Of a stretch of DNA of 64,000 nucleotides, positions 2,044 to 60,255 are shown in pieces. The notes beneath the pieces were generated by a model that saw only the letters and a list, made by a program, of their open reading frames with translations, did no database searches and was not told the origin of the DNA. Source of the DNA: Patescibacteria group bacterium (GTDB taxonomy: Bacteria > Patescibacteriota > Patescibacteriia > UBA1558 > GWA2-36-10); the NCBI GenBank assembly GCA_041665505.1, contig JBAYIR010000001.1:19108-83107 (forward strand), in the 5' to 3' direction. The position numbers and the translations under genes were made by a program. Position 1 is the first letter of the stretch; every line of letters begins with the position of its first letter.

Positions 2044-2106
2044 CATAAGGTTAGTCGTTATTTGTCAACCGAAGGAACTGAAACTGAAGGAAAGAGAGGA
2101 CTAGTC

Positions 2107-3633
2107 ATGTTGATAGTAGGAATCGAACCCAAAGCTCCTGGACTGCATATGTTTACGCAAGTGTACACGCCGCGGGCGGGTCTACCGAGGTTACTCCCCC
2201 GAGCTCAGGAACTCGGACATCAGTGCGTCATCTTCTGTGAAGAGTTGCGTCAATCGCAGCTCGATTGGACTCTGGTCTCCAAGGCGGATTTGATCTTGGT
2301 CTCGTCAACCACCTCGACTGCGCCACGCGCTTACCAGCTCGTGGCCAAGGCCAAAAGGCTGAATCCGCGGGCGACTATACTTGGTGGAGGACCTCATTTC
2401 ACTTTCGAGTGTCAGGAGGCGCTGGAGAGTGGTATTGATTTCGTCTTCCGTCATTGGGCAGACAGCAGTTTCTTTGAGTGGCTGGAGTGGTATCAGTCAC
2501 TTGAGGATACTCAGGTGATTAGCGGTGACGATTTGCGTCGCCTGTCAGAAATTGGCGGTTTGGCCTTCATGACGGGCAATCAAGTCCACAAGACGGCTAT
2601 GCCCAGGCAGGTTGACCCTGATTCATGGGCCACGCCTGATTTCCGCTTGGTGACTGGCTACAAGCCAAGAACTCTGACAATGATCACCAGTGAAGGATGT
2701 GATCACAAGTGTGAGTTCTGCTCGGAGTGGACCATGCACGGTGGAAAGTACCGTGTTCGTTCAGCTGAGAGAGTCTTGGCAGACCTTGTTTTTTACCGAA
2801 GAATCTATGGGAGGATTCCGATTTTCTTCGGAGATGACAACTTGGCTGCTGACCAGAAAGACAGCACTGGTCAGGTGACTGTTTCTGGTGTTGATCGTTT
2901 GACACAGCTGTGTCAGATGATCATTGATCATGGTTTGCAGGGTTCATATTCTGGTCAGGTTCGTCTGGCCTTGGCTGACCATCCGGGGGTCTTGGCTTTG
3001 ATGAGCCGAGCGGGCTTTAATCGAGCCTGTATTGGCTATGAATCGATAAACCCCGACAATGCCCAAGCTACGGGCAACAAGCTGGAGTTTGCTCGCATGG
3101 GTGAACAGACAGCTATGTTTCACAAGCATGGTATTGCTGTCCATGCGATGTGGATCATGGGTTTTGATCCTGATACTTTGGCCACCATCGCTGAAACAGT
3201 GAAGGCGGCCATCAACTGGCGGATTGAGACCAACCAATTTATGGTTTTGGTGCCAATTCCTGGTTCACCACTGAGGAAACGTCTAGAAAGAGAGGGGAGA
3301 ATCATTCATTCGGCGGGTTGGGATAAATACGACGGACACCATGTCGTATTCTACCCCAAACTGATGAAGTCTTGGGAACTCCAGGCAGCAGTGATGCTCA
3401 GAGCTATGCCCAAGGTCTACAACCTGGGACAAACCTTGGGCATTTACCTGTCTAGCAATTTCCGTACCTTGGTGAGATGGATTAACCGTCGGGCGCCTCA
3501 TCCTGGTATTGAGTTTCAGAGTCATACCATCACTCTGGTCTTGCGAGTGGTGGGACGTAACATGGTTAGGCGGGTTGGTAAACCCGCTAGAGACTACTTC
3601 GAGGAACTGAGGAGGTCGCCTACCAACAGGTAG
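2107..3633 (+). CDS. B12-binding-domain radical SAM protein (class B rSAM), compositionally foreign (~55% GC)
   Basis: N-terminal B12-binding-like region (ILVSSTTSTAPRAY...ILGGGPHFT) and a radical SAM CxxxCxxC box (SEGCDHKCEFCSE). A strong SD lies 8 nt before the ATG at 2107. The ORF track's TTG start at 2062 lacks an SD. Confidence 0.75.
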   Translation: MLIVGIEPKAPGLHMFTQVYTPRAGLPRLLPRAQELGHQCVIFCEELRQSQLDWTLVSKADLILVSSTTSTAPRAYQLVAKAKRLNPRATILGGGPHFTFECQEALESGIDFVFRHWADSSFFEWLEWYQSLEDTQVISGDDLRRLSEIGGLAFMTGNQVHKTAMPRQVDPDSWATPDFRLVTGYKPRTLTMITSEGCDHKCEFCSEWTMHGGKYRVRSAERVLADLVFYRRIYGRIPIFFGDDNLAADQKDSTGQVTVSGVDRLTQLCQMIIDHGLQGSYSGQVRLALADHPGVLALMSRAGFNRACIGYESINPDNAQATGNKLEFARMGEQTAMFHKHGIAVHAMWIMGFDPDTLATIAETVKAAINWRIETNQFMVLVPIPGSPLRKRLEREGRIIHSAGWDKYDGHHVVFYPKLMKSWELQAAVMLRAMPKVYNLGQTLGIYLSSNFRTLVRWINRRAPHPGIEFQSHTITLVLRVVGRNMVRRVGKPARDYFEELRRSPTNR

Positions 3634-5319: not shown

Positions 5320-5707
5320 TGGTGGAGATGAGGGGTATCACACCCCTGTCTGGCAAATGTCCTAATACACTTCTACAAGCTTATTCAATTTTGTGGTTTA
5401 AATTGTTGGCTCTAAAATTGACAAAAAACCAACAACCGAGCTAGTTTTTTTGTTTCAAAATACTTGTACTAACTCCAGGTATTTCTAGCCTGAAAAATAT
5501 GGCGCCTCTAGTCAAGCTCAGGCGGCTTAGCCTAGAAACGGTCGAGGCACAATTTAGGCCAAGACTGGTGCAAAGCTAGGAACTTTGAAAAGTTCTTTTA
5601 CTTTGGCAAAAGTGTTTTCTGCACTTATTTTAGTGTAATTTTTTACGAGATCACGAACTCAACTTGCTATATATCACTTCATCTGACGTCAAATAAAAAA
5701 CATCCCC
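5320..5707 (-). ncRNA. ssrA: tmRNA (SsrA)
   Basis: Minus-strand 5' end is GGGGAUG...UUUGACG. The 3' end has GGAC, a T-arm, CAUCUCC-A-CCA, and an acceptor stem with a G3:U70 wobble (Ala identity). A candidate tag ORF (AENTF...FAPVLA*) ends in TAA. The gene sits 4 nt downstream of the smpB stop. Confidence 0.65.
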
Positions 5708-5711
5708 TTAA

Positions 5712-6164
5712 TTAAAAATTTTTCAATTTTCTTAAAATGTTTCTATTGATATCCTTTCTTTTGATATCTTCTCGTTTGTCAAATTTCCTTTTTCCTTTAA
5801 CTAAAGCAATTTTTACCTTAATTAACCTTCGCGTAGTATACACTGAAACAGGCATTATTGTCAAGCCCTTCTCCTTGGTTTTACTGGATAAATATAGTAT
5901 TTCTTTTTTAGTTAAAAGTAATTTGCGGTTGGCATCTGAATCGTAGTTTTTCATACTTTGTAGAGAAGCTTTGGCATAAATAGGAATATGTACCTTTTTG
6001 ATGTAGGCTTGACCATTTTTAATAGAAATAAAAGCGCCTTTAAGACTAATATGTCTAGTTTTAATAGATTTCACTTCAGCCCCAGTCAAAACTAAACCAG
6101 CCTCAAACTCTTCTAAGTTTTGGAAATTATGATTAAGCTGTTTGTTTATGGCGATTGTAGGCAT
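5712..6164 (-). CDS. smpB: SsrA-binding protein SmpB
   Basis: IAINKQ..NY...EAG..L.G.EVKS...ISLKGA...YIKK..I is conserved SmpB sequence, and the gene is adjacent to the tmRNA. Confidence 0.85.
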   Translation of the reverse strand: MPTIAINKQLNHNFQNLEEFEAGLVLTGAEVKSIKTRHISLKGAFISIKNGQAYIKKVHIPIYAKASLQSMKNYDSDANRKLLLTKKEILYLSSKTKEKGLTIMPVSVYTTRRLIKVKIALVKGKRKFDKREDIKRKDINRNILRKLKNF

Positions 6165-16166: not shown

Positions 16167-16195
16167 TTGACAAAAAATGTTGAATAGAGTATTAA
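16167..16195 (+). promoter_or_regulatory. Sigma70-like promoter TTGACA-17-TATTAA for GC-rich cassette B
   Basis: Direct motif read, followed by an AAGGAGA Shine-Dalgarno at 16233-16239. Confidence 0.45.
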
Positions 16196-16245
16196 TAAAT
16201 AGATTTGTTCCCATCACTGTTTCACCCTGGACAAGGAGACCTGAG

Positions 16246-16698
16246 TTGGAGACTGACAGCAAAAAAGCCAAGAAACCCCTGGTCGAACTCGACATATCGG
16301 TCAGGTATGGCCGCCTGACTGAAAAGCCGGCGCCGACTTATCAGGGCCAGGCGGTCGGCGAGGTTCTCAAGGACTTGCTCACCTCAGGGCCTATTTCGCG
16401 GACTTCTTCTGACATCAGTGTCAGTGTTGACTTCGGTCACAAGATGGTCCATCTGGTCCGTATGCGACTGCTTCGTTCGTCCAGCTTCGTCGGCGCATTC
16501 GGCGTCATCACGGTGGTACTTCGTCCCTTGGCCGTTGGTTTCTGCCATGGCCACGACCAGACCTTCCAGTTTTGCCCGGATGATCGTCTGATTGGCCAGC
16601 GTGGGCAGATCATCAAGCTGACGCTGGGTTACCCCGAATTCAAAAGCGAGACCTGGCACAGGGAGAAGCAGTCACAGGAAGTCAAGCAAGCTTCCTAG
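16246..16698 (+). CDS. Hypothetical protein (~150 aa) of GC-rich cassette B (~58% GC). The TTG start is inferred from the SD, and the coding strand is not fully certain.
   Basis: The ORF frame is continuous with the ORF-track ORF 16177..16698. AAGGAGA lies 6 nt upstream of a TTG. No family was recognised. A 91-aa antisense ORF (16384..16659) also exists. Confidence 0.35.
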   Translation: METDSKKAKKPLVELDISVRYGRLTEKPAPTYQGQAVGEVLKDLLTSGPISRTSSDISVSVDFGHKMVHLVRMRLLRSSSFVGAFGVITVVLRPLAVGFCHGHDQTFQFCPDDRLIGQRGQIIKLTLGYPEFKSETWHREKQSQEVKQAS

Positions 16699-21867: not shown

Positions 21868-22905
21868 TCACATGCGTTTGGGCAGTTTGAGTTCTATACC
21901 GCCCTCTGGCATGCCACCACCACTGCAACAGTTGGAAGCAGGGATGATCAAGAGCTGGCCTCGATGACCTTGTCCTTTTTGTTCGAAGGGACGCGATTCA
22001 TTTACTTGCCACACCGTTGCATTTGTTGGTTTTTCGCTACGTAGCCAGCTGAGAGCTGGAAAGCCATCTCCACATTTCCAGTTAGCGAAATGTTCGGCTA
22101 TGCTGGTTTCATCAAAATAGAGTGCCGGATCTTGAATGTGCAGAGAGATATGACGCATGTGATTTGGTCTGAACTTGTCACTGCTAGTGCCTTCCCGCCA
22201 GCAGGGTTGACCACGAAAAGCTCTAGCCGGGTAGACTTTTGCGTATCCGTTGTCAGGATGGAAAACAATCACCCAGTTGGTTGACAATATCTTCGTGCCG
22301 TCATCACTGACAGCTACTGCCTGGTTGAAGTCCTTTTCAGCCTTACTGCGAGTAGCTGCAATTTTTTGATCCATGAGTTGGCACATGATATCTCGCGACT
22401 GCTGCCACTTGTTACCACTGCGGTACCAGCTACCATAAAGGCAGTAGAGCAAGCCATGGGGCCAGAAGCCTTCACTGATGCCATCATTTCTCTGATTGAA
22501 TGTCAGGAACATCCGATCGTCTTCCTTACCGCTGACAATTATCAAACAACATGCCGTTCCTACATATAGTTTGACGTCACGGAGTCGGTGCATTATAGCC
22601 AGCAGTGGTTCTAGTTTTTCAAGCCATTCCATCATACTATTAGATTCCACTTTAGGGTCAAAGGGGAACCACATTGGATCAGCACAGTCGAGTAGCAATT
22701 TTCTCATATCATGCTCTTCGACTACGTCACAGAGCAAGGTAGATCCCAGATATTTGGACCACATCTCATGATCTGGGTGAGGGGATTGCCGCTCTTGTTT
22801 AAGCCAATCAGCGATATCGCGACGGCGAAACAGGTTGTCTTCAGCAAAGCGATTGAGCACGAAATCCTTACGGATTTCAGACAGGGGTTTAGTGAAAAGA
22901 GCCAT
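21868..22905 (-). CDS. Hypothetical 345-aa protein of cassette C (~48% GC, Cys/Trp-rich); no family recognised
   Basis: An AGGAGG SD sits 8 nt upstream of ATG (MALFTKPLSEIRK...). This is shorter than the ORF-track ORF, whose first Met lacks an SD. The promoter TTGACA-N18-TGATTAAAT lies at 22965-22996. Confidence 0.6.
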   Translation of the reverse strand: MALFTKPLSEIRKDFVLNRFAEDNLFRRRDIADWLKQERQSPHPDHEMWSKYLGSTLLCDVVEEHDMRKLLLDCADPMWFPFDPKVESNSMMEWLEKLEPLLAIMHRLRDVKLYVGTACCLIIVSGKEDDRMFLTFNQRNDGISEGFWPHGLLYCLYGSWYRSGNKWQQSRDIMCQLMDQKIAATRSKAEKDFNQAVAVSDDGTKILSTNWVIVFHPDNGYAKVYPARAFRGQPCWREGTSSDKFRPNHMRHISLHIQDPALYFDETSIAEHFANWKCGDGFPALSWLRSEKPTNATVWQVNESRPFEQKGQGHRGQLLIIPASNCCSGGGMPEGGIELKLPKRM

Positions 22906-22964
22906 GGGTATCAACCTCCTAAAGTTGGTGCAGTAGTTGTCTAAACTACCGCACATACCCACAG

Positions 22965-22996
22965 TCATTTAATCAGAATATTACATTATTTGTCAA
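22965..22996 (-). promoter_or_regulatory. Sigma70-like promoter (TTGACA plus an extended -10 TGATTAAAT) for cassette C
   Basis: Direct motif read on the minus strand. Confidence 0.4.
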
Positions 22997-35136: not shown

Positions 35137-35562
35137 CTAGGCCGGGTCAAACAATTCGACTAGTCCCTCGATCGTGGCTACAAGAGTTTGGAGTCCAGCT
35201 AGAGTGAACATCAGGATTGCAGCCAGGAAACAGCCAAAGGGTAGAGCTAGACCAAACCAGCTCACGCCAATTAGCAGTTCCAGGACGGAGAAGGCGTCTT
35301 TGCTCTGGTCGAGCCTGGAGATAGCGAGAAAAGTCCCACCGGCAACTGACAGAAGTGGCCACCAGGAGTAGTCCAGAGTCATCATCCATCCGGACGTGCT
35401 TATCAGCACCACGGCGATGACTTGCCGGCGTTTGAACATGGGGTGTGAGAAACTGAGTCCCGCGATCATCAGGCTCAGACCCGCCACAACACTATTGTCG
35501 TGGAACATAGCCACAAACAGCATGGCAATGCCAGCTAGGACACTCAGTAGGGCGTTTTTCAT
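35137..35562 (-). CDS. Hypothetical 4-TM membrane protein (cassette D, first gene)
   Basis: GGAAGAAAGGGAAAG SD lies before the ATG (MKNALLSVLAG...). There are four hydrophobic helices. Confidence 0.55.
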   Translation of the reverse strand: MKNALLSVLAGIAMLFVAMFHDNSVVAGLSLMIAGLSFSHPMFKRRQVIAVVLISTSGWMMTLDYSWWPLLSVAGGTFLAISRLDQSKDAFSVLELLIGVSWFGLALPFGCFLAAILMFTLAGLQTLVATIEGLVELFDPA

Positions 35563-35902
35563 GGTCTTTCCCTTTCTTCCTTGGGGGATCACTGGCTTTA
35601 GCCAGACTTTGCTAGGCGTTTTTAGCACACAAGGCTCTATCTACTATGGGCTTTGACCCAATTTACAAATGAATTGTACAGTGACTTTAACAATTAAATA
35701 TAATCTGATTATCAGCCTTTTGTCAATTACTGGCTTAAAGGGCTTGATTTATTTAAATTTTTATGTTAAAGTATTGCTGCTTAATTAATCACAAGTATTT
35801 TCATTGATTATTTGATTAACCTTCCCCAAATAAAAAAAGGGGCATTCAAATAGGAAAATACGGGTAAGCCCGCTTGTAGCGAGGCTAAAGAAAGGAAAAA
35901 AT

Positions 35903-45146: not shown

Positions 45147-45266
45147 TTATTGTTACTATGTGTTTTTTTGACAGTTTAATATGTCTAAGTGTTTTGCTCT
45201 ATGAGCAAAAGGTGACAGGCTTTATGCTTGTCTCTAAACCGTCCCTTCAACCTAGGAAAGGAGGAT

Positions 45267-46715
45267 GTGCACGTTTCGCCATATCCTAGTCCATCGGCTT
45301 CACACGCTTCACCAAAACAAACTAGGATGCTTGGTGCATCCAGAATGGAGCTGCAGATGATTACCCGTCAGGACAACCCTAGCATGTCTGCTCAGGCAGA
45401 CGTTATCGTCATTGGTGGGGGCGCCAACGGTGCTCTTATCACCTTTGAGCTCGCCAAGCGTGGCTACCAAGTCATCACCCTGGAAAAGGGTGCACTTGGT
45501 AACGGATCCAGCAGTCGTTCCGCGGCTTGTATCCGCGCTCAGTTCGGCGATCCTCGTAACGTCCTCGGCATGGTGTATGCCGAGTGGTTCTTCGAGAACT
45601 TCTACTCGATCTTGGGTGTTCCCGAAGAGGAGCAGAATGAGTGGCTGTTTGAGCAAAACGGCTACCTGTTCCTCTATGAGGATCCTGGTCAGATCGAAGA
45701 TTCTGCCAAGAGCAAGGCTTCTGCCAAGGCATGGCTCGAGGCACTGAAAGCTGCTCACATGCAACAGAAGCTTGGTTTGCCGGTTGAGATTCTCGATCCC
45801 TCTACTGTCCACGCCCGCTACCCGCACATCAACCCTGAACTTTTGATCGGCGCGACCTTCTGCCCCACCGACGGTTTCCTCAACCACGACCTCATCTACC
45901 TCAGGGGATTCGAGATGGCCCAGCGGCACTACGGTGCCCAGGTCTTCACGAACACCGAGGTGATCGGCGCTACTCGTGCCAAAGACGGCACGATCACTAC
46001 TCTGCACACCACAAGTGGTGACTTCTCGGCCAAGTGGATTGTCAACGCGACCAATGCGTGGGCGCCACGGCTGAGCAAGTTGCTGGGCGGCATGGAACTG
46101 CCCATCACACCCTTTAAGCGGTATTTGTACTGGGTACAGCCGCACTCGTCCGTGTTTTCGGACGATAGTTGGAAGAAACTACCCTTCACCATCTTCGGGA
46201 TGGGTCCGGACAGAGGATCCTACTGTCGGCCGCATCACAACGAGTTGATGTACGGTTGGGCTCACGAAGCTGAACCTGAACCGCAGTTCAGCGACGAAGA
46301 CCAGGACAGGATCGGTGCTGGTTTCCATCCCGATTCGGCAAGTGGCGACCGAGACTACTGGCTGGAGTTCCGTCTCAACGTCAACGACTTCTCGGAGTTG
46401 TTGGCCAACACTGGTCGGGCTCGGGCAACTGCCGGGTACTACGGCCAGACGCCGGATCATCAGCCAATCATCGATGTGGATACGCAAGTGTCCAACCTGA
46501 TCCATGCGGTCGGATTCTCTGGCCACGGCTTGATGATGTCTCCGGTGACTGCTCAGGTGGTCGCCGCCCTCGTCGATGGCCGGGGCGAGATCGTGAACAG
46601 GCAGATTTGTCTGCCACCGATGTTCAGGCCCGAGATGACCAAGCTCATGCTCGATTGCAGTCACTTCTCGGCCACGAGGGACTTCTACGCTCAGAAGGAA
46701 GGAGCTTACATCTAG
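45267..46715 (+). CDS. FAD-dependent oxidoreductase, DAO family (glycine/sarcosine/D-amino-acid oxidase-like); GC-rich (~58%)
   Basis: DVIVIGGGANGALITFELAKRGYQVITLEKG is a GxGxxG Rossmann motif, and the C-terminus has a GFSGHGLM motif. A GTG at 45267 lies 4 nt after AGGAGG. Alternative starts are 45228 (ORF track) and the ATG at about 45357. Confidence 0.75.
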   Translation: MHVSPYPSPSASHASPKQTRMLGASRMELQMITRQDNPSMSAQADVIVIGGGANGALITFELAKRGYQVITLEKGALGNGSSSRSAACIRAQFGDPRNVLGMVYAEWFFENFYSILGVPEEEQNEWLFEQNGYLFLYEDPGQIEDSAKSKASAKAWLEALKAAHMQQKLGLPVEILDPSTVHARYPHINPELLIGATFCPTDGFLNHDLIYLRGFEMAQRHYGAQVFTNTEVIGATRAKDGTITTLHTTSGDFSAKWIVNATNAWAPRLSKLLGGMELPITPFKRYLYWVQPHSSVFSDDSWKKLPFTIFGMGPDRGSYCRPHHNELMYGWAHEAEPEPQFSDEDQDRIGAGFHPDSASGDRDYWLEFRLNVNDFSELLANTGRARATAGYYGQTPDHQPIIDVDTQVSNLIHAVGFSGHGLMMSPVTAQVVAALVDGRGEIVNRQICLPPMFRPEMTKLMLDCSHFSATRDFYAQKEGAYI

Positions 46716-46742
46716 ACATGTGTTCATTACAGTTTCGGACCA

Positions 46743-46808
46743 GGGGGTCTACAGCACATAAGCGATTGTTTACAATCGTGTGTCTGTAGCCCCCTGAATT
46801 TTTTTATT
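46743..46808 (+). terminator. Long imperfect palindrome plus T-run, acting as a terminator
   Basis: cagggggtctacagcaca...cgattgt-tt-acaatcg...tgtgtctgtagccccctg followed by aattttttta. Confidence 0.5.
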
Positions 46809-46848
46809 CTAAATATTATACTATATTGATTATTTACGAGGCTTTGTA

Positions 46849-46877
46849 TTGACAAATTGTATTTTTTACGATAATTT
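46849..46877 (+). promoter_or_regulatory. Sigma70-like promoter (TTGACA ... GATAAT) for the small cassette E gene
   Basis: Direct motif read. An AGGAGG SD lies at 46927-46932. Confidence 0.45.
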
Positions 46878-46941
46878 TTATATTACGTTCCAAAATTGGG
46901 GCGTTTGCTAGGAAACAGTGCATTTAGCAGGAGGCAATTCA

Positions 46942-47271
46942 ATGCAGGCCGACAAAATTATCGGTGAGACCACCCGTGTGTTCCCTCGACTGCGCTGCGT
47001 GGCTATCAAGCTGGCACCGAACGACACGGTTCTCAGGGAGGGGATGACCGTTTCCTTCCATCGCGAGGCTAGCGATATGGGAGCTTTGGGCTTCCATGAC
47101 AGCACCCACAAGATCACCTCGATCGAGGTCAACCGGACGCCGGTGGCTGAGGCAACTCATCAGGATGGTATCTGTGCTGTTTGGATCGGTGGTTCGGTAG
47201 ATGATTTGCCGCCTCGTCGCTGCATCGTCTCGGTCATCAACGACCGGGCACCTGATCAGCCCACGACTTGA
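46942..47271 (+). CDS. Hypothetical 109-aa protein, partner of the FAD oxidoreductase
   Basis: AGGAGG lies 9 nt before ATG (MQADKIIGETTRV...). GC-rich. No family recognised. Confidence 0.55.
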   Translation: MQADKIIGETTRVFPRLRCVAIKLAPNDTVLREGMTVSFHREASDMGALGFHDSTHKITSIEVNRTPVAEATHQDGICAVWIGGSVDDLPPRRCIVSVINDRAPDQPTT

Positions 47272-47296
47272 CAAGTTGTTCGAGTCGTGGTAAGAT
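47268..47296 (+). promoter_or_regulatory. Putative tRNA-operon promoter TTGACA-17-TAAGAT
   Basis: Direct motif read. It overlaps the hairpin cacgact-N14-agtcgtg at the end of the preceding CDS. Confidence 0.4.
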
Positions 47297-47312
47297 AATC
47301 TTTCGATTTGGT

Positions 47313-47389
47313 GCGCCGTTAGCTCAATTGGTTAGAGCACTAGGCTTACAAGCTAGAGGTTGAGGGTTCAAGTCCCTCACGGCGTACCA
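47313..47389 (+). tRNA. tRNA-Val(TAC)
   Basis: Manual cloverleaf. Acceptor GCGCCGT/ACGGCGT (G1:U72), D-arm TAGCTCAATTGGTTAGAGC, anticodon loop CTTACAA, T-arm GAGGGTTCAAGTCCCTC, and an encoded CCA. Confidence 0.75.
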
Positions 47390-47400
47390 CACAATTTGGT

Positions 47401-47476
47401 GGGGTTATAGCTCAATTGGCAGAGCATCAGACTCAAAATCTGAATGTTAGGAGTTCAAATCTCCTTAACCCCACCA
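47401..47476 (+). tRNA. tRNA with anticodon CAA and a short (5-nt) variable arm. The overall sequence resembles tRNA-Trp(CCA) with C35 changed to A.
   Basis: Manual cloverleaf. Acceptor GGGGTTA/TAACCCC, anticodon stem TCAGA/TCTGA, loop CTCAAAA, variable arm ATGTT, T-arm AGGAGTTCAAATCTCCT, discriminator A, encoded CCA. Confidence 0.65.
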
Positions 47477-47494
47477 CTGTTCTTCTCTACAGAA

Positions 47495-47570
47495 CCCTAT
47501 ATAGCTCAACTGGACAGAGCCCCTGGATTTCTTCTCAGGAGCCGTGGAGGTTCGAATCCTCCTATAGGAG
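47495..47570 (+). tRNA. Non-canonical tRNA-like gene (Arg-TCT-like layout) with an 8-nt anticodon loop, a 6-nt variable region, a C1:A72 mismatch and no encoded CCA; possibly a pseudo- or recoding tRNA
   Basis: A canonical D-arm (TAGCTCAACTGGACAGAGC) and T-arm (GGAGGTTCGAATCCTCC) are present. The anticodon stem CCTGG/TCAGG encloses ATTTCTTC. Confidence 0.4.
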
Positions 47571-47576
47571 TTCTGG

Positions 47577-47614
47577 GGGCCCGCGTTGCACAAACGCGGG
47601 CCCTAAAGTTTTTT
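47577..47614 (+). terminator. Rho-independent terminator after the tRNA cluster
   Basis: gggcccgcg-ttgcacaaa-cgcgggccc followed by taaagtttttt. Confidence 0.65.
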
Positions 47615-47663
47615 ATGCTATAATATAGGTATACTAATTTGAATATTTATCGCTTTAAATGAT

Positions 47664-48401
47664 ATGCAAGTCAACAAAAAACAAATAGAATTTTTGCTCA
47701 AGTTAAAAAAGAAAAAATATCGTGATGAACACCAAAAATTTTTGTTTGAAAACCCCAAAGTAATTTGGGAAGAATTTTCCAATCCTTTATTGGATTCTGT
47801 TTATGTGACGGATAATTTTTATAAAGAAAATGAAGATCGGATGGTTTTTAAAAACATCTATCGTCTTTCCGAAAAAGATTTGGGCAAAATATCCAATCAA
47901 GTGAATCCTCTTGGTATGGTAGCACTGTTTAATATGCCTCAGGCCAAAAAATTTATTTTTAAATCAAAAAACGTTTTGCTTTTAGATGGTATTTCCGATC
48001 CAGGCAACATGGGTACTATTATTCGCACGGCTGATTGGTTTGGTTTCAATCATGTATTTTTGGGCAATAATTGTGTAGAAATTTATAATCCCAAAGTAGT
48101 AGCAGCTAGTATGGGTTCTATTTTCAATGTTAGTTTAAATGCCGATGTTAATTTAAAATCATTAATCAATGACCTCAAAGAAGAAGGCTATCAGATTGTA
48201 GTGACTGATTTGATGGGTGATGAATCTGATATAGATAGGCGGGCTAATATCGCTCTAGTGATTGGCAATGAAGCCAAGGGAGTAGATAGAAAATTAATTG
48301 AGTTGGCTGATAAGCGTTTTAAGATTATGAAGTCTGGTAAGGCTGAATCACTTAATGCTGCTGTAGCCGCTGGTATAGTGATGAATAAAATAAAATTTTA
48401 A
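47664..48401 (+). CDS. SpoU/TrmH-family RNA 2'-O-methyltransferase
   Basis: LLLDGISDPGNMGTIIRTADWFG......G.......PKVV.ASMGS are SPOUT motifs. Confidence 0.75.
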   Translation: MQVNKKQIEFLLKLKKKKYRDEHQKFLFENPKVIWEEFSNPLLDSVYVTDNFYKENEDRMVFKNIYRLSEKDLGKISNQVNPLGMVALFNMPQAKKFIFKSKNVLLLDGISDPGNMGTIIRTADWFGFNHVFLGNNCVEIYNPKVVAASMGSIFNVSLNADVNLKSLINDLKEEGYQIVVTDLMGDESDIDRRANIALVIGNEAKGVDRKLIELADKRFKIMKSGKAESLNAAVAAGIVMNKIKF

Positions 48402-48616: not shown

Positions 48617-50002
48617 ATGGATTTATCAAGCCTAATTTTATTTTTTGTATATATAGTAAATCTTTGTTTACTGGTTTTTGTCTTTTTTCATAAGGATAGA
48701 CAAAGATCGTGGCCATTTTTTTGGATGCTATTATTATTGGTGCTGTGGCAGAGTACGGAATTATTGAATATTTTTTACTTTATTCATCAAGATAAAAGCA
48801 TTTTACTTTTAGCTGTCCAAGCCGGCCTTTTGCCAGCTTTGTATTTAGCGCCAGCTTTTGTTAAGTTGGTTTTTTCTTTATTTGGGAAATGGCAACATGT
48901 AGGGAATTGGCGCAAGTTTTTATGGTATTTGCCAGCTATTATTATGTCAGGCTTTGTATTTACACCTTACAATTTAGCAGAGGTCATAGTCAGAGATAGT
49001 AGACTTTATTATATAGCGGGGCCAGTTTATTGGTTTTTTGCTGCTTATTTTGTCTTGTTGATGGCTTATGGTTTGTATATTTTGGCCAAAAATAGAAGGA
49101 CCGCTGGACCGATTGTGCGTCGGCAAATCGCTTATATTTTTGTAGCTACAGCTTTGGTGTCTATTAGCGGCTTATTATTTAATATTTTATTACCAATTTT
49201 ATCTAAACATAATTTTTATTATCTAGGAGTAAATAGTACTATATTTTTCACAGTAATACTGACTTATGCTTTGTTTAGACATAGATTTTTTGATTTGCGT
49301 ATTTCTTTTTATCAAACTCTTATCAATTTGTTCAAATTATTTATTACCGGTTTCATTTATTATATTTTTTATTTTTTATTACACGATTTGATAAAAGTAG
49401 ATTTTAATAATATACAAAATGTAATATTTTTACTTTTACTATTTGGTCTTAGCGCACCATTTATATTCAATGCAGTTCATAAATTTTTATTAGCTCTATT
49501 TATCACTCCTGAGCATGATATCAGAGTATCTAGTGATAAAATCGCAGAGATACTGCGCTCTAGTCGTGATTTGGATATTTTGCTGTCCAGATTATCCAAA
49601 GAAATAAATAAGGTAATTGGCTATAAAGAATTATTTATTTATCTTTCCAAGAAAAAAGATTTAGATACATTCTACCAGGTTTTTCCTATGGGGGAGAGGC
49701 TACTTAATAAAGCGGATAGCGAGCTTATTAAATATTTGGCTCAAAAGAAGACAATAGCCAATCGAGCGGAGATAGAGTATTTTTTTGTAGACAAGATGTT
49801 GATTACTGAGATGGAGACTATGCATGTAGATATAGCTTTACCGATTTTTTATAATAAACAGCTCTTGGGTATTTTGATGATTGATAATGATGGTGAACTC
49901 TTGTCCATTCAAGAATTGCAGTTTCTCAAAGAATTAAATAAGTATTTAGATATTGCTGTCGGCAGTTTGCTATTGTATCAGCAGGATTTAGCAGGTAAAT
50001 AA
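48617..50002 (+). CDS. HisKA_7TM-type 7TM receptor module fused to a C-terminal GAF domain (no kinase domain)
   Basis: The N-terminal 7 TM region ends in the conserved YALFRHRFFDLRI, matching the 7TM region of the kinase at 57436. The C-terminal ~150 aa are GAF-like. Confidence 0.55.
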   Translation: MDLSSLILFFVYIVNLCLLVFVFFHKDRQRSWPFFWMLLLLVLWQSTELLNIFYFIHQDKSILLLAVQAGLLPALYLAPAFVKLVFSLFGKWQHVGNWRKFLWYLPAIIMSGFVFTPYNLAEVIVRDSRLYYIAGPVYWFFAAYFVLLMAYGLYILAKNRRTAGPIVRRQIAYIFVATALVSISGLLFNILLPILSKHNFYYLGVNSTIFFTVILTYALFRHRFFDLRISFYQTLINLFKLFITGFIYYIFYFLLHDLIKVDFNNIQNVIFLLLLFGLSAPFIFNAVHKFLLALFITPEHDIRVSSDKIAEILRSSRDLDILLSRLSKEINKVIGYKELFIYLSKKKDLDTFYQVFPMGERLLNKADSELIKYLAQKKTIANRAEIEYFFVDKMLITEMETMHVDIALPIFYNKQLLGILMIDNDGELLSIQELQFLKELNKYLDIAVGSLLLYQQDLAGK

Positions 50003-50012
50003 TCATAAAATT

Positions 50013-50702
50013 ATGAGTGTTCAAAACATTTTACTTTTATTAGCGGGACTTATCAATTTAACAATGAGTATTTTGGTTTTCTCCCGAGGTGTCAAGCATA
50101 ATAAAATAAATTTTTATTTTTCTCTTTTGACTTTTTTTAATTTTTTATGGGCACTTAATCTTATTGTAATAAATTTAGGAATTAATTATGAGCTTACTAG
50201 ATTTATGGCTAGTTTGGTATATCCAGTAGCCTTGATGATAGTGGTCATTTTGTTTTATTTTATAATACATTTTCCTTATAAATTGCTTGAAATACCAAAA
50301 ATTTATAAATTGTTTATTAACTTGTCGATATTATTTTATAGTATATTTTGTATTTTTTTCTATCAAATTTTTGTTTGGAAAGTTTCTCTAGGTCCTAAAG
50401 TTATAATTTATTATGAATTTATATCTTATTCCATTTATACTTTTATACTTATTATTTTAATGTTGGCTGGCATAGTAATATTATTTTTAAAATTAAAAAA
50501 AGCTGAAGCAGCTTTTAAACAGCAACTATGCTTAGTATTATTAGCGGTGATTATTGGTACGGTCATGGGCAGTTATTCCAATTTGTTTTTAATGTATTTC
50601 CATAATCTTGATTATAACCACTTTGGTCCTTTATTTACTTTGGTTATAAATTTTATAGCCTTTTATCTAATTTTTTTAAAAGGCAAAATAAACAATAAAT
50701 AA
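50013..50702 (+). CDS. Stand-alone HisKA_7TM-like 7TM membrane protein (paralogue 1)
   Basis: The N-terminal ~45 aa are near-identical to gene 50707. The product is multi-TM with no cytoplasmic domain. Confidence 0.55.
   Translation: MSVQNILLLLAGLINLTMSILVFSRGVKHNKINFYFSLLTFFNFLWALNLIVINLGINYELTRFMASLVYPVALMIVVILFYFIIHFPYKLLEIPKIYKLFINLSILFYSIFCIFFYQIFVWKVSLGPKVIIYYEFISYSIYTFILIILMLAGIVILFLKLKKAEAAFKQQLCLVLLAVIIGTVMGSYSNLFLMYFHNLDYNHFGPLFTLVINFIAFYLIFLKGKINNK
50040..50160 (+). repeat. About 120-bp direct repeat (roughly 85% identical copy at 50745..50865) marking the tandem duplicated 5' ends of the 7TM paralogues
   Basis: Direct sequence comparison of the two gene starts. Confidence 0.6.
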
Positions 50703-50706
50703 ACAT

Positions 50707-51405
50707 ATGACAATCACAACACTAGGCTTACAAAACTTTACTTTATTGCTGGCTGGGCTGATTAATTTGACAATGAGCATTTTGGTTTTTTCTCGCGGAG
50801 TAAAGCACAATAAAATAAACCTTTATTTTTCTCTACTGACTTTTTTTAATTTTTTGTGGGCGTTTGCTCTACTACTAGCTAATATTTTTTCTAACAACGC
50901 CTTAGCGGAAATATCTTATAGAACATCATATCTCGCTGCAGTTGGTATAGCTGTCTCCTTGTTTTATTTCTCATTATATTTCCCTTACAAGATAAAGAAT
51001 TTAAAGTTGTATAATAACGTATTAGTTCTAATTTTTTCAGCAATTATTTTAGTATTTATATATTCTAAGTGGCATATAATTTTTTTTGAGAGGGGACTAA
51101 ATTTATCTAATTGGTTAATTGATTATTATAAACCTTTTTATGTAGTTTATAGTTTATTTTTTCTATCATTAGTTATCTCAGCTATATGTTTTTTAGTAAG
51201 CAGATTATATAATTTGGAAAGCTGGCTAAAGAGGAGAATAAAAATTTTATTAATTACTATTATAGTAGGTCTGGTTTTTGGTGTTTATTTTGATTTAATA
51301 CTTTGTTATTTTGGAAACTTTAACTATATTTGGTTTGGTCCAATATTTACTGCTTTTATGAATATATATGTTTTTTATCTTATATTCCACAACAAAGAAA
51401 AATAA
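50707..51405 (+). CDS. Stand-alone HisKA_7TM-like 7TM membrane protein (paralogue 2)
   Basis: LLLAGLINLTMSILVFSRGVKHNKINxYFSLLTFFNFLWA is shared with gene 50013. Confidence 0.55.
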   Translation: MTITTLGLQNFTLLLAGLINLTMSILVFSRGVKHNKINLYFSLLTFFNFLWAFALLLANIFSNNALAEISYRTSYLAAVGIAVSLFYFSLYFPYKIKNLKLYNNVLVLIFSAIILVFIYSKWHIIFFERGLNLSNWLIDYYKPFYVVYSLFFLSLVISAICFLVSRLYNLESWLKRRIKILLITIIVGLVFGVYFDLILCYFGNFNYIWFGPIFTAFMNIYVFYLIFHNKEK

Positions 51406-57435: not shown

Positions 57436-60255
57436 ATGAATAGTTTCACGATATCTACATTAATTACAGCATCAGTCTCTTTAATTTTTGGTGTTTTTGT
57501 TATTTATCGTAATAATAAGTCTTTAGAAAATAGGTTCTGGAGCCTTGTATGCTTTGGTGTTTTTGTTTGGCAATTAGGTCTTTTTTTAGAATTGTTGTCT
57601 AAAGATGAATCTCAAGCTTTATTTTGGAATAAATTTTTAAATGTTGGTGCTATATTAATACCTATTTTTTATTATAATTTTGTTTTAATTTTATTAAATA
57701 AATTAAAAAATGGTAAAAAATTATTGAATTTTGGTTACATTTTGGCTTTATTTTTTTTATGTTTTAATTTATTCACAAGTTTATTTGTAAAAGGTGTCCC
57801 GCCGGCTTTTAATTTTAAATATTGGGTAGAGCCTGGTATTTTGTACTATCCGTATTTTGTATATTTTGCTTTATATTTTATATTTAGTTTTCATAAATTA
57901 ATTTTAGCTCTTAGAGAATATAAATTTTTAAAAAAACAACAAATAAAATATGTTTTATTATCAGGTCTTTTTGGCGTAGGGGGTGGCGTAACGGTCTTTT
58001 TCCCGCAATTTTTTGGTATATACCCAACTGGTAATTACTTCGTTATATTATATTTAATTTTAGTTACATATGCTATGGCAAAATATCGTTTTATGAATAT
58101 AAGACTTATTTTAACCCGTAGTATTTTATACGCTATATTAGTTGGTACAGTAGCTAGTTTTTTTGCTTTGTCAGTCTTAGTCATTGGTAATGCTATCGGC
58201 GGTAATACTCAAACTAGTAAAATAATTACATATATTGTTACTTCATTTATAGTAGTAGTATTTCTTGACCCAGTAAAACGCACTTGGGCCAAAGTTACAG
58301 ACAAAGTTTTTTATAGAGGAAAGATTGACTATCAAGAAGTGTTTAGAGAAGTTGGTAATGTAGTGGCTAGAGAAATTGATTTGTATAAATTATTAGCTGG
58401 TGCCAGCTCTTTGCTGGCCGATAAATTAAAGATAAAACAGGTAGCATTCTTCGTACCAAACGATAAACAAGAGTTTTATCTTTTTGTTAGTTCAGATCAA
58501 GAAAAGCAGAAGTTTTCTTTGTCAAAAGATTTTGTTACTTATCTAGAAAAAAATAGAAAAATTTTGATTATTGACGAAGTAATCAGAGATTTAGGTAATC
58601 TAGATGAAAAATCTGAGCAATATCAAACAGCGGATTATTTTATCAAAGAAGCAGAAGCTCATAAAGCAGAAATGATTGTGCCAATAGTAGAAAATGATAA
58701 TATTACAGCTATTATATTATTTGATGCTAAGCAGTCAGGTGATCTCTACGGGCAGGATGATATCAATTTTTTGGAAGTTTTTGTTCCTCAAGTCGCTACC
58801 GCTATTGAAAAATCCAAGCTTTATGAAGAAGTAGAAGCCTTCAATAAAGAGCTCCAGCAAAAAGTAGATGAAAAAACCAAGAGTCTCAAAGAGGTCAATG
58901 TTGCTTTGCAGGCTAGAAATAAATTTTTGACCACTATCCAAGTGGTGACCAATATGATCAGTCGTACTTTGGACTTGAAAAAAATCAATCAAATGATTGC
59001 CGACAGCATAGCTACAGAGCTCGGTTATGTGGGTGGTATGCTAAGTTTTGTAGATAGAGAGAATAAATATTTAAAAGTAGGGGCAATTACTAATAACGAT
59101 CACACTAGGCAAGCTTTTCATATTCTCTCCAAAGAGCCGAGAGATTATCAGACCAAGTTGGAAGAAAATTATAATTTGAGCGCTCAGACTTTTTTAACTG
59201 GTAAAATAAATTTTTCTGATAAGCTATCAGACTTTTTAGCTCCACCAGTGGGTAAAGCAGAAATAGACAAAATTCAAGAAATATTGGGCATAAAGACTAT
59301 AGTCGGTGTGCCAGTATTTTCTGAAGCTAGAATCATTGGGCTTATCCAATATTATTTGCCAATTAAAAGAGATAAAATTTCTTCATTGGATATTGAGATT
59401 ATGACAGCTTTGACCAATCAAGTTGGCTTAGTATCTCGTAATCTAAAACTTTATAATACTCTCCAGGAGGCCAATGCTGATTTACAAGATGCTAATACCA
59501 GACTGAGAGAATTGGATAAAGCTAAATCAGAATTTTTGTCCATTGCTTCTCATCAATTGCGTACACCAATTTCAGCTATCAAAGGTTATTTATCTATGAT
59601 GATTGATGGAGATTTTGGGCCATTACCAAAAAATATTAATGATGTAATAAAAAACCTTTTTGAAAGTGCCGCTCGCTTGGCTAGGCTCATTAATATTTTC
59701 TTAAATGTCAGTCGTATCGAATCTGGTCGGTTGAAGCTAGAGAAAAAACCAATTCAAATAAATGAATTGATAGATAGTGTCATAATAGAGCTTATCAATC
59801 AAGCTAAACAAAAAAAAGTAAGTTTGGAATACAAAAAAAAGAAAACAGTTCCACCACTTATTATGGCTGACGCTGATAAACTCAGAGAAGTAGTGCTTAA
59901 TCTAGTAGATAATGCTATTAAATATACTCCAGAGGGCTCTATTGTTGTAACAGTAGAAGCTGATAATGATGAATTAAACTTCAAAGTGACAGACACCGGT
60001 ATTGGTATCAAGAAAGAAGAGGTAAAAACTTTGTTTAGAAAATTTGTTAGAGGTTCTGGTGTAGCTCAGATTCATACTGGTGGATCAGGTCTAGGACTTT
60101 TCATTGCCCAAAAGATTATCAAAGAGCATGATGGCCAAGTCTGGGCTGAAAGTGAAGGTAGTGGCAAAGGCTCAGTTTTTCAATTTACATTGCCAGTTTA
60201 CAAGGAAAATGGAGCACCAATTTATAAGGAAGAAACAAAAATAACTAAGAAATAG
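57436..60255 (+). CDS. Sensor histidine kinase: HisKA_7TM membrane domain, two GAF-like regions, HisKA and HATPase_c. It is an orphan, with no adjacent response regulator.
   Basis: H-box SIASHQLRTPISAIKGY, and N/G boxes LVDNAIKYTP...DTGIGI...GGSGLGLFIA. Confidence 0.85.
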   Translation: MNSFTISTLITASVSLIFGVFVIYRNNKSLENRFWSLVCFGVFVWQLGLFLELLSKDESQALFWNKFLNVGAILIPIFYYNFVLILLNKLKNGKKLLNFGYILALFFLCFNLFTSLFVKGVPPAFNFKYWVEPGILYYPYFVYFALYFIFSFHKLILALREYKFLKKQQIKYVLLSGLFGVGGGVTVFFPQFFGIYPTGNYFVILYLILVTYAMAKYRFMNIRLILTRSILYAILVGTVASFFALSVLVIGNAIGGNTQTSKIITYIVTSFIVVVFLDPVKRTWAKVTDKVFYRGKIDYQEVFREVGNVVAREIDLYKLLAGASSLLADKLKIKQVAFFVPNDKQEFYLFVSSDQEKQKFSLSKDFVTYLEKNRKILIIDEVIRDLGNLDEKSEQYQTADYFIKEAEAHKAEMIVPIVENDNITAIILFDAKQSGDLYGQDDINFLEVFVPQVATAIEKSKLYEEVEAFNKELQQKVDEKTKSLKEVNVALQARNKFLTTIQVVTNMISRTLDLKKINQMIADSIATELGYVGGMLSFVDRENKYLKVGAITNNDHTRQAFHILSKEPRDYQTKLEENYNLSAQTFLTGKINFSDKLSDFLAPPVGKAEIDKIQEILGIKTIVGVPVFSEARIIGLIQYYLPIKRDKISSLDIEIMTALTNQVGLVSRNLKLYNTLQEANADLQDANTRLRELDKAKSEFLSIASHQLRTPISAIKGYLSMMIDGDFGPLPKNINDVIKNLFESAARLARLINIFLNVSRIESGRLKLEKKPIQINELIDSVIIELINQAKQKKVSLEYKKKKTVPPLIMADADKLREVVLNLVDNAIKYTPEGSIVVTVEADNDELNFKVTDTGIGIKKEEVKTLFRKFVRGSGVAQIHTGGSGLGLFIAQKIIKEHDGQVWAESEGSGKGSVFQFTLPVYKENGAPIYKEETKITKK

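Follow-up and report, generated by a model that had tools for sequence, protein, structure and literature searches.

The window analysed here, a stretch of 64,000 nucleotides (nt) from contig JBAYIR010000001.1 of a Patescibacteria group bacterium (genome ~33% GC) whose closest named relatives are Candidatus Komeilibacteria, contains a compact operon of three tRNA or tRNA-like genes, tRNA1 to tRNA3, located between a small open reading frame, ORF109, and a gene encoding a SpoU/TrmH-family RNA methyltransferase (TrmH). In the lineage that carries this operon the bodies of the RNAs are conserved and the anticodons differ between strains and species. The genes were identified with ARAGORN and the Rfam tRNA model (gathering score 29 bits). 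Exactly three tRNA genes were reported by ARAGORN in the 64-kb window, all within 47313-47570 and all on the forward (+) strand, as are ORF109, TrmH, the oxidoreductase gene preceding ORF109 and the promoter, spacer motif and terminator described below. The first, tRNA1 (47313..47389), was called tRNA-Val(tac), scored 71.4 bits with the Rfam model and carries the anticodon UAC in the window strain; it has a G1.U72 pair, A73 and an encoded CCA. An earlier note on this DNA described tRNA1 as folding cleanly, but the anticodon stem contains a G31.G39 mismatch, which is marked in the Rfam alignment, and the minimum free energy fold favours a register-shifted stem in which the anticodon is closed into a UACA tetraloop.

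The second gene, tRNA2 (47401..47476), was called tRNA-Leu(caa) and scored 76.7 bits. It is a class I tRNA that forms a perfect cloverleaf, GGGGUUA-UA-GCUC-AAUUGGCA-GAGC-A-UCAGA-CUCAAAA-UCUGA-AUGUU-AGGAG-UUCAAAU-CUCCU-UAACCCC-A-CCA, with the loop CUCAAAA, the anticodon CAA, a 5-nt variable region (AUGUU), A73 and an encoded CCA. The third, tRNA3, was placed by ARAGORN at 47495-47570 as tRNA-Arg(tct), scored 42.2 bits and, together with its flanking helix, occupies 47490..47575. Its D and T arms are Arg-like, the anticodon stem CCUGG/UCAGG carries an 8-nt loop (AUUUCUUC) with a pyrimidine at position 37 and a U after the candidate anticodon, and the variable region is 6 nt. At the acceptor end C1 stands opposite A72, position 73 is G and CCA is not encoded; the acceptor helix runs at least 4 bp into the flanks, where 5' CAGAAC pairs with 3' GUUCUG, and nucleotide 72 is bulged. 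The earlier note had correctly recognized the CAA anticodon and short variable arm of tRNA2, and the 8-nt loop, 6-nt variable region and C1 opposite A72 of tRNA3 can be read directly from the sequence as it described; what it called a C1:A72 mismatch, however, is better viewed as a bulged nucleotide 72 within a helix that extends into the flanks. The unusual features that the note pointed out are real; ARAGORN, which it had proposed as a check, called tRNA2 Leu(caa) and tRNA3 Arg(tct).

The three genes lie between a sigma-70-like promoter (47268..47296; TTGACA, 17 nt, TAAGAT, with TG before the -10 box) and an intrinsic terminator (47576-47604, in a segment delimited as 47576..47614; a GC-rich hairpin of 12 bp with a run of T behind it), which together frame them as one predicted transcription unit. 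The -35 box overlaps the stop codon of ORF109. The promoter is kept in the aligned alleles, including those of L034 and L122 (L-numbers denote loci collected from relatives, in the sequences of which the alleles were checked), the terminator is kept among alleles with compensatory changes, and immediately 3' of it lies the TrmH promoter-like TGCTATAAT. The interval between tRNA2 and tRNA3 contains the motif GTTCTTCTC (47479..47487), which is present in the window, L030, L120, L034 and L122 and, in the degraded form TTGTTCTTT, in L041 (~2803-2811), though tRNA1 and tRNA2 are gone there. In the window group the string UUCUUCUC of this motif occurs again in the anticodon arm of tRNA3, where it forms the loop and the 3' strand. 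Ahead of both tRNA1 and tRNA2 the 5' leader closes with TGGT, the complement of the ACCA that discriminator and CCA make up together (47309-47312 with 47386-47389 and 47397-47400 with 47473-47476), a feature also seen in the tRNA-Pro genes of L004; the leader of tRNA3 covaries with a non-CCA trailer. Searching 46650-47700 against Rfam at a permissive threshold returned nothing besides the tRNAs.

The bases of tRNA2 and tRNA3 recur in L002 (JGI 3300037810), L032 (SRR6484324) and L033 (ERZ27247837), although the assembly containing the window, ERZ27249449 (contig k141_749216, 350 kb), and JGI 3300037810 have other contigs in common and may derive from shared reads. As the same bases are found in several assemblies, a sequencing or assembly error, which the earlier note had offered as one cause of the odd bases, is very unlikely.

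The site was located in relatives by synteny, with the TrmH-family gene on the downstream side as anchor. In L035-L039 and L042, whose TrmH proteins are 76-85% identical, the gene order is PSP1, GAPDH, cysteinyl-tRNA synthetase (CysRS), TrmH and HisKA_7TM, with CysRS adjoining TrmH and no tRNAs, and this order is ancestral. The promoter, tRNA-like genes and terminator are found directly upstream of TrmH in one subclade only, in which the alleles have flanks in common, ORF109 or CysRS upstream and TrmH downstream. Within this subclade tRNA1 carries the anticodon UAC in the window and L032, CAG in L033, CAU in L120 and CUU in L030 and L031, and in L034 and L121/L122 it is without an anticodon, a 5-bp stem being capped by UUUU or UUUA. 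The acceptor stem is identical or near-identical among these alleles, and L034 and L122 have a conserved tetraloop form in common. The tRNA2 body, 90-100% identical across the syntenic alleles, carries CAA in the window, L002, L032 and L033, GAA in L030 and L120, AGG, with G37, in L034, and CCA in L121/L122. All alleles of tRNA1 and tRNA2 have A73 and CCA. The anticodon loop of tRNA3 is 8 nt in the window and L030 (AUUUCUUC) and in L120 (AUUUCUUG), 7 nt in L034, 6 nt in L122 and ~12 nt in L041; in L030 and L120 ARAGORN calls a 4-base anticodon, 'ttct'. Of the three genes only a tRNA3 homolog is left in L041 (29 bits). In L123 (3881-3949; also L124 and L125), where TrmH is 86% identical, a single 69-nt tRNA-like element lies upstream of TrmH. 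ARAGORN called this element His(gtg), and with Rfam it scored 38.6 bits; a proper D arm is missing, one extra base resembles G-1, and the CTTGG/CCAAG stem is the one found in the tRNA1 alleles with a tetraloop.

Across six alleles of tRNA2 all 126 of the 126 base-pair cells are standard, with compensatory changes at 5:68, 27:43 and 31:39, and outside the anticodon arm only 0-6 of 59 positions differ, compared with 19-58% at four-fold degenerate sites of TrmH. Within the 7-nt loop, by contrast, up to five of the seven positions differ, and in the anticodon arm of tRNA1 the window and L030 differ at 11 of 17 positions, against 29% at four-fold sites. In tRNA3 there are 12 covarying pairs, which include the extension pairs 1:73, -1:74, -2:75 and -3:76; these extension pairs are retained in every lineage, and nucleotide 72 is never paired in any of them, the opposition being C.A, C.C or U.U. 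Conservation and covariation of the bodies, set against the divergence of the anticodons, argue for purifying selection on the former and not on the latter. Strong purifying selection, with compensatory changes, acts on the bodies, which comprise the acceptor, the D and T arms and, in tRNA1 and tRNA2, the CCA, and the anticodon arms, by the same comparisons, change at or above the rate of synonymous sites, some alleles having tetraloops or loops resized to 6-12 nt. Bodies that are fixed and anticodons that are free to vary are the opposite of what is expected of core decoders, and are also unlike decaying pseudogenes.

A further comparison is that of the window with the near-identical strain L033. 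In 807 aligned bases there are nine differences, eight of which lie at 47323-47372 inside tRNA1 (50 nt) and one at position 26 of tRNA2; no differences were observed in ORF109, the promoter, tRNA3 or the terminator. The cluster in tRNA1 points to allelic replacement or short-tract conversion, or to strong local selection.

The sole E. coli match of tRNA2 is tRNA-Trp (78.6% over 56 nt, E 4e-3), and the allele in L121/L122 is CCA, in keeping with the Trp-like character attributed to it in the earlier note. It is, however, without the Trp hallmarks, the anticodon being CAA and not CCA, and all six alleles having A73 and not G73, a determinant of bacterial tRNA-Trp. Of the features of bacterial tRNA-Leu, which is class II, A73 and an NAA anticodon are present but the long variable arm (a stem-loop of at least 11 nt) is absent. 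Relative to tRNA-Phe the window has CAA instead of GAA, and the sister species L030 and L120 have GAA on that body. The gene displays what defines an anticodon shift: a syntenic ortholog, alike in body, that has different anticodons in close relatives. Indeed its loops form a single-step series, CUCCAAA (L122), CUCAAAA (window), CUGAAAA (L030) and GUGAAAA (L120), in which CAA is one substitution from CCA and one step from GAA. The divergence of TrmH makes L030 and L120 sisters and the window their outgroup, with L122 further out, and from these few taxa parsimony slightly favours the view that CAA was ancestral to the window, L030 and L120 and derived from CCA. The tRNA2(CAA) of the window is a fixed allele, one step in a CCA-CAA-GAA series on a Trp-like class I body.

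Reassignment of UUG, the codon that an anticodon CAA would read, was ruled out by tallies of the codons in orthologs. When the 197 UUG codons of the window with orthologs in 13 related loci were examined, the aligned residues were Leu in 86% of cases, Phe in 2% and Trp essentially never, a profile that matches that of other Leu codons; against the sister species, 117 of the 122 aligned codons were Leu codons. In its genomic meaning UUG is still a leucine codon, and the genetic code is unchanged. Roughly one quarter to one third of the Leu codons are UUG, and an efficiently used tRNA(CAA) charged with an amino acid other than Leu would therefore be very costly. As a separate observation, the sisters (L030/L120) have TTG opposite a TTA of the window 36 times and the reverse 17 times; this asymmetry counts a shared branch twice and is not significant, and in so small a sample it might be a hint that the lineage with tRNA2(CAA) mildly avoids UUG.

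The pattern itself is rare. A short-arm tRNA with the loop CUCAAAA and the D and T loops of tRNA2 had one other, unrelated match in 185,579 species-representative genomes, at L003 1506-1580 (-) in a metagenome-assembled genome (MAG) of Thermoanaerobaculia (DATKBT010000153.1), where CAA replaces GAA on a typical tRNA-Phe body, and there were no matches in IMG/VR. When metagenome contigs were scanned for the tRNA2 body, whatever the anticodon, no match emerged from a collection that evidently lacks the short JGI contig known to carry it. A looser tRNA2-body pattern retrieved phage tRNAs of many isotypes from viral collections and is not diagnostic. Phage tRNA arrays in IMG/VR do, however, contain tRNAs of 74-77 nt that have the Leu anticodons UAG or AAG but lack a long variable arm (L014 6445-6519, L018 10753-10826, L020 4677-4753 and L029 12815-12888), and thus the combination is not unique to this locus. 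These arrays also hold entries that ARAGORN cannot assign and to which it gives a 2-base 'anticodon'.

Upstream of the operon, ORF109 (46942..47271) encodes a protein of 109 amino acids (aa) from a GC-rich gene with an AGGAGG ribosome-binding site. The family is rare, with two homologs among 5.8e9 proteins and nine representatives among 1.84e9, and the homologs come from Komeilibacteria-type MAGs. There is no direct Pfam match to ORF109, and GTP_EFTU_D2 gave weak matches in three of 11 family members. An AlphaFold2 model built from 11 sequences is all-beta with a predicted local distance difference test (pLDDT) score of 84.5, a model from two sequences having reached only 36. In Foldseek searches of the PDB the model matched 4he5 (the C-terminal domain of a U32 peptidase), domain II of aIF2-gamma, domain II of EF-Tu and eIF5B (domain IV), with a probability of 1.00, E of 3e-4 to 1e-2 and template modelling scores of 0.5-0.64. 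The beta-barrel of EF-Tu, aIF2-gamma and eIF5B contacts the acceptor end of tRNA, and it is possible, judging from the modelled fold, that ORF109 binds a tRNA acceptor end as well. The gene also appears to travel with the operon. In L122 the tRNA unit is immediately preceded by a homolog of 63% identity, and the oxidoreductase gene that precedes ORF109 in the window is absent; in L041 a 204-aa homolog lies upstream of the single tRNA-like gene; and three further homologs are on contigs equal in size to those of TrmH orthologs, which suggests the same linkage. No relatives of ORF109 or tRNA3 were found in phage and viral collections.

We propose that these genes form an accessory tRNA and tRNA-like operon of one Komeilibacteria-related lineage, the products of which are used through their body and acceptor end and not for dedicated decoding; the function is one we infer from the sequences, and we put the probability of this reading at roughly 0.45. 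The unit is absent in close relatives and its anticodons are not conserved, which would make the RNAs redundant for decoding. Selection would then act on a role that needs the tRNA elbow and the acceptor end, and the likeliest such role is that ORF109 binds, protects or hands over the 3' end, possibly in aminoacylated form. Change in the anticodon arm would be unconstrained or even favoured. Any decoding by tRNA2(CAA) would be incidental and tolerated, amounting at most to low-level misreading of UUG and to none if the tRNA is poorly charged, and tRNA3 would be a conserved non-decoding tRNA-like RNA and not a quadruplet decoder. Several observations weigh against this proposal. The redundancy for decoding would follow from the relatives and not from the full tRNA set of the host; most tRNA1 and tRNA2 alleles keep a 7-nt loop, U33 and a purine at position 37, and even have loops typical of the isoacceptor (G37 with AGG); the fold match of ORF109 is moderate, and proteins that have no connection with tRNA can contain beta-barrels of this kind too; in L034 the operon has no ORF109 beside it; and the lineages sampled that are independent number about six. 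A more far-reaching form of the proposal, which we regard as speculative and, as a whole, unlikely, is that the locus is an undescribed Patescibacteria module in which an EF-Tu-domain-II-type barrel acts with non-decoding tRNA-like RNAs, the anticodon arm diversifying freely, perhaps as a target-specifying element or decoy, and being swapped between strains via short conversion tracts, and that it may serve in non-ribosomal aminoacyl transfer, in sequestering a factor that binds tRNA or in defence against toxins that target tRNA.

In the main rival explanation tRNA1 and tRNA2 are spare genes that do decode and whose anticodons have shifted (alloacceptor remolding), with identity following the anticodon. 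It could be argued that the valyl-, methionyl-, lysyl-, phenylalanyl-, tryptophanyl- and prolyl-tRNA synthetases (ValRS, MetRS, LysRS, PheRS, TrpRS and ProRS) recognize chiefly the anticodon when the body has A73, such that each shift retunes the tRNA supply. Schulman and Pelka reportedly swapped Val and Met identity by a change of anticodon in 1988. Leucyl-tRNA synthetase (LeuRS), which requires A73 and takes no account of the anticodon, would charge the alleles with CAA and CAG, and UUG and CUG would then be read correctly as Leu despite the short arm. This explanation would account for the A73 and CCA of all alleles, for the 7-nt loops, U33, R37 and isoacceptor-typical loops of most tRNA1 and tRNA2 alleles and for the lack of any sign of miscoding at UUG, a frequent Leu codon, and phage arrays also contain short-arm tRNAs with Leu anticodons. 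Against it stand the tRNA1 alleles with a tetraloop and the tRNA3 loops of 6-12 nt, which are unable to decode although the bodies that carry them are conserved, and the short-arm CAA pattern matched only the one other gene in the 185,579 species genomes. To our knowledge there is no natural class I tRNA that is accepted by a bacterial LeuRS. Anticodon shifts of syntenic tRNA genes are nonetheless established (PMC3923123, PMC3868979), and we consider the spare-decoder explanation unlikely but worthy of serious attention.

An improbable alternative is deliberate mistranslation by dual-identity tRNAs, in which a fixed amino acid would be inserted at a strain-specific misread codon, here UUG, in the manner of tRNA-ProX, a documented precedent (PMC10404621). 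One body with several anticodons across relatives is what such a system would produce, there are proline genes near the locus, and a related island has ProRS and tRNA-Pro genes. There is, however, no dedicated synthetase paralog beside the operon, the neighbours of which are a DAO-family oxidoreductase, ORF109 and TrmH, and ProRS adjoins the oxidoreductase gene only in the L004 island, where it is accompanied by canonical tRNA-Pro genes. Nor do the RNAs contain a known anticodon-independent element (G3:U70 or a long arm), with the exception of G3.U70 in tRNA1 of L122. UUG occurs at conserved Leu positions, where efficient misreading would be very costly, and the weak TTG/TTA excess (36 vs 17), which might be taken as a sign of such misreading, counts one branch twice and falls short of significance.

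The anticodon arm of these RNAs changes faster than neutral sites with its stem still paired, and the strain-level replacement is confined to tRNA1, both of which would be expected if the RNAs were decoys or spare parts directed against anticodon-loop nucleases of phage, host or competitor, with bodies kept for recognition and loops that match or escape the nuclease. Phage tRNAs do escape anticodon nucleases through changes in the loop. Such escape variants, however, normally keep the anticodon, which is itself what changes here; no nuclease, toxin or defence gene was identified beside the locus, and the viral collections contain no relative of ORF109 or tRNA3. We attach little probability to this explanation.

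The earlier note had itself proposed that tRNA2 could be a codon-reassigning (Trp to Leu) or suppressor tRNA and that tRNA3 is a +1 suppressor, which would have a quadruplet anticodon, UUCU or UCUU. The Trp-like body of tRNA2, the 8-nt loop kept in three lineages and the 4-base 'ttct' called in L030 and L120 are in its favour, but we judge it very improbable. The window UUG codons align with Leu in orthologs, which leaves no place for a Trp-to-Leu reassignment, and CAA reads a sense codon, which is at odds with suppression. With respect to tRNA3, the homologous loops are 6, 7 or ~12 nt as well as 8 nt, a pyrimidine occupies position 37, nucleotides 1 and 72 do not pair in any lineage, CCA is missing and the acceptor helix runs on into the flanks; moreover AGA-A or A-AGA would be extremely common in this AT-rich genome, in which efficient quadruplet reading would presumably be lethal. 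Decay of pseudogenes after duplication or transfer of a tRNA cluster, which might be inferred from the unconserved anticodons, the tRNA1 mismatch, the low score of tRNA3 (42 bits) and the loss, in L041 and L123, of all of the unit but a single weak tRNA-like gene, is likewise highly unlikely given bodies far more conserved than synonymous sites, 100% pairing in tRNA2, compensatory changes in tRNA2 and tRNA3, a conserved promoter and terminator and a tetraloop allele conserved between species.

The anticodon is normally the most conserved part of a tRNA gene, and here, in an uncultured bacterium with a minimal genome, the bodies are frozen and the anticodons differ between strains and species. 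The identities implied are Val, Leu, Met or Lys at tRNA1 and Trp, Leu, Phe or Pro at tRNA2, and some alleles have no usable anticodon. If the RNAs decode, the locus would represent natural and rapid switching of tRNA identity, or a tolerated ambiguity in the reading of a common Leu codon; otherwise they would make up a class of tRNA-like RNAs that is new and has a small protein as its dedicated partner. In either case, automated calls of 'Leu-CAA' or 'Arg-UCU' in genomes of the candidate phyla radiation, and the inference of genetic codes from them, can be misled by loci of this kind.

The wider surroundings of the operon comprise a gene for an FAD-dependent oxidoreductase of the DAO family upstream (45327..46715; 56% GC) and the conserved TrmH gene downstream (47664..48401). 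The GC-rich genes upstream of the tRNAs had been viewed as a foreign cassette; they are indeed GC-rich but are common to relatives, and ORF109 is linked to the tRNA unit itself. GC-rich orthologs of the oxidoreductase gene stand beside proBCA in relatives, and it is not a random insertion. In L004 (4232-8560; also L005 and L006) a GC-rich island (53-58% GC), adjoining an AT-rich proBCA, contains ProRS, the oxidoreductase, three canonical tRNA-Pro genes (UGG, GGG and CGG) and a further GC-rich stretch; the window tRNAs display no homology to these three tRNA-Pro genes. In L008, from a genome of 62% GC, the order is proBCA, ProRS, the oxidoreductase and tRNA-Ser(GGA). The oxidoreductase gene and ORF109 remain GC-rich in species whose proteins have diverged by 20-37% and thus are not simply the result of recent, unameliorated transfer. 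They are two of six genes of 48-57% GC scattered in the window (2062-3633, 16177-16698, 21868-22968 (-), 35137-35628 (-), 45228-46715 and 46942-47271). One of the six codes for a B12-binding radical SAM protein, and for three there is no match in Pfam; the intergenic regions beside them are rich in AT and by eye include promoter-like sequences, among which a scan confirmed only the promoter of the tRNA operon. Elsewhere in the window a tmRNA gene (5320-5707 (-); Rfam 115 bits), which ARAGORN missed, adjoins smpB (5712-6164 (-)). Downstream of TrmH, 48617-51405 contains three tandem genes for HisKA_7TM-type membrane domains (461, 229 and 232 aa), the two short proteins having an identical N-terminal stretch of ~30 residues, and 57436-60255 encodes a full histidine kinase with an N-terminal domain of the same HisKA_7TM type.

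Several known systems resemble this locus in part. Shifts of tRNA anticodons have been described by Rogers and Griffiths-Jones in 2014 (PMC3923123) and by Yona et al. in 2013 (PMC3868979), and remolding is known from mitochondria (PMC4783518). As in those cases, a syntenic ortholog keeps its body and acquires a new anticodon in close relatives, by single steps (GAA/CAA/CCA). In contrast to them, the shifts described here recur at one and the same pair of genes in different strains and species within a single bacterial clade, extend to anticodons of Leu, for which the synthetase, LeuRS, takes no account of the anticodon, and occur alongside alleles without an anticodon, a tRNA-like gene and a small protein. 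The mistranslating dual-identity tRNA-ProX, which is found with ProRSx in Streptomyces and Kitasatospora (PMC10404621), likewise combines one body with different non-matching anticodons in each genome, and its accessory genes are clustered with a protein partner. The partner here, however, is a 109-aa beta-barrel, with no adjoining synthetase paralog, and the host belongs to the Patescibacteria. The tight array of extra tRNA genes with its own promoter and odd members is similar to phage tRNA arrays and accessory clusters, but comprises three genes only and is chromosomal, at a fixed syntenic site with no phage genes and no relative in the viral collections.

The comparisons that remain concern tRNA3 above all. 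The +1 frameshift suppressors sufD, SufB2 and sufJ are canonical tRNAs with one inserted base that keep U33, R37, a 7-bp acceptor stem and CCA. With these tRNA3 has in common an 8-nt anticodon loop on a tRNA-shaped RNA, and it differs from them in Y37, the bulged nucleotide 72, the lack of CCA and a loop length that varies between orthologs. The C1 x A72 opposition, which is C.C or U.U in relatives, is reminiscent of the bacterial initiator tRNA, but in tRNA3 the helix continues past the mismatch, and the CAU anticodon of the initiator and the three G:C pairs at the foot of its anticodon stem are absent (stem CCUGG/UCAGG, loop AUUUCUUC). Finally, the tRNA-like domain of YrlA and the Staphylococcus tRNA-Gly used in cell-wall synthesis are examples of RNAs with non-decoding or non-ribosomal roles. 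Although the window RNAs have no sequence or context relationship to either, and no Rsr/Ro or Fem-type gene lies nearby, they resemble them in the conserved elbow and acceptor, and in having an unpaired 1:72 and a disrupted anticodon loop that disfavour normal elongation.

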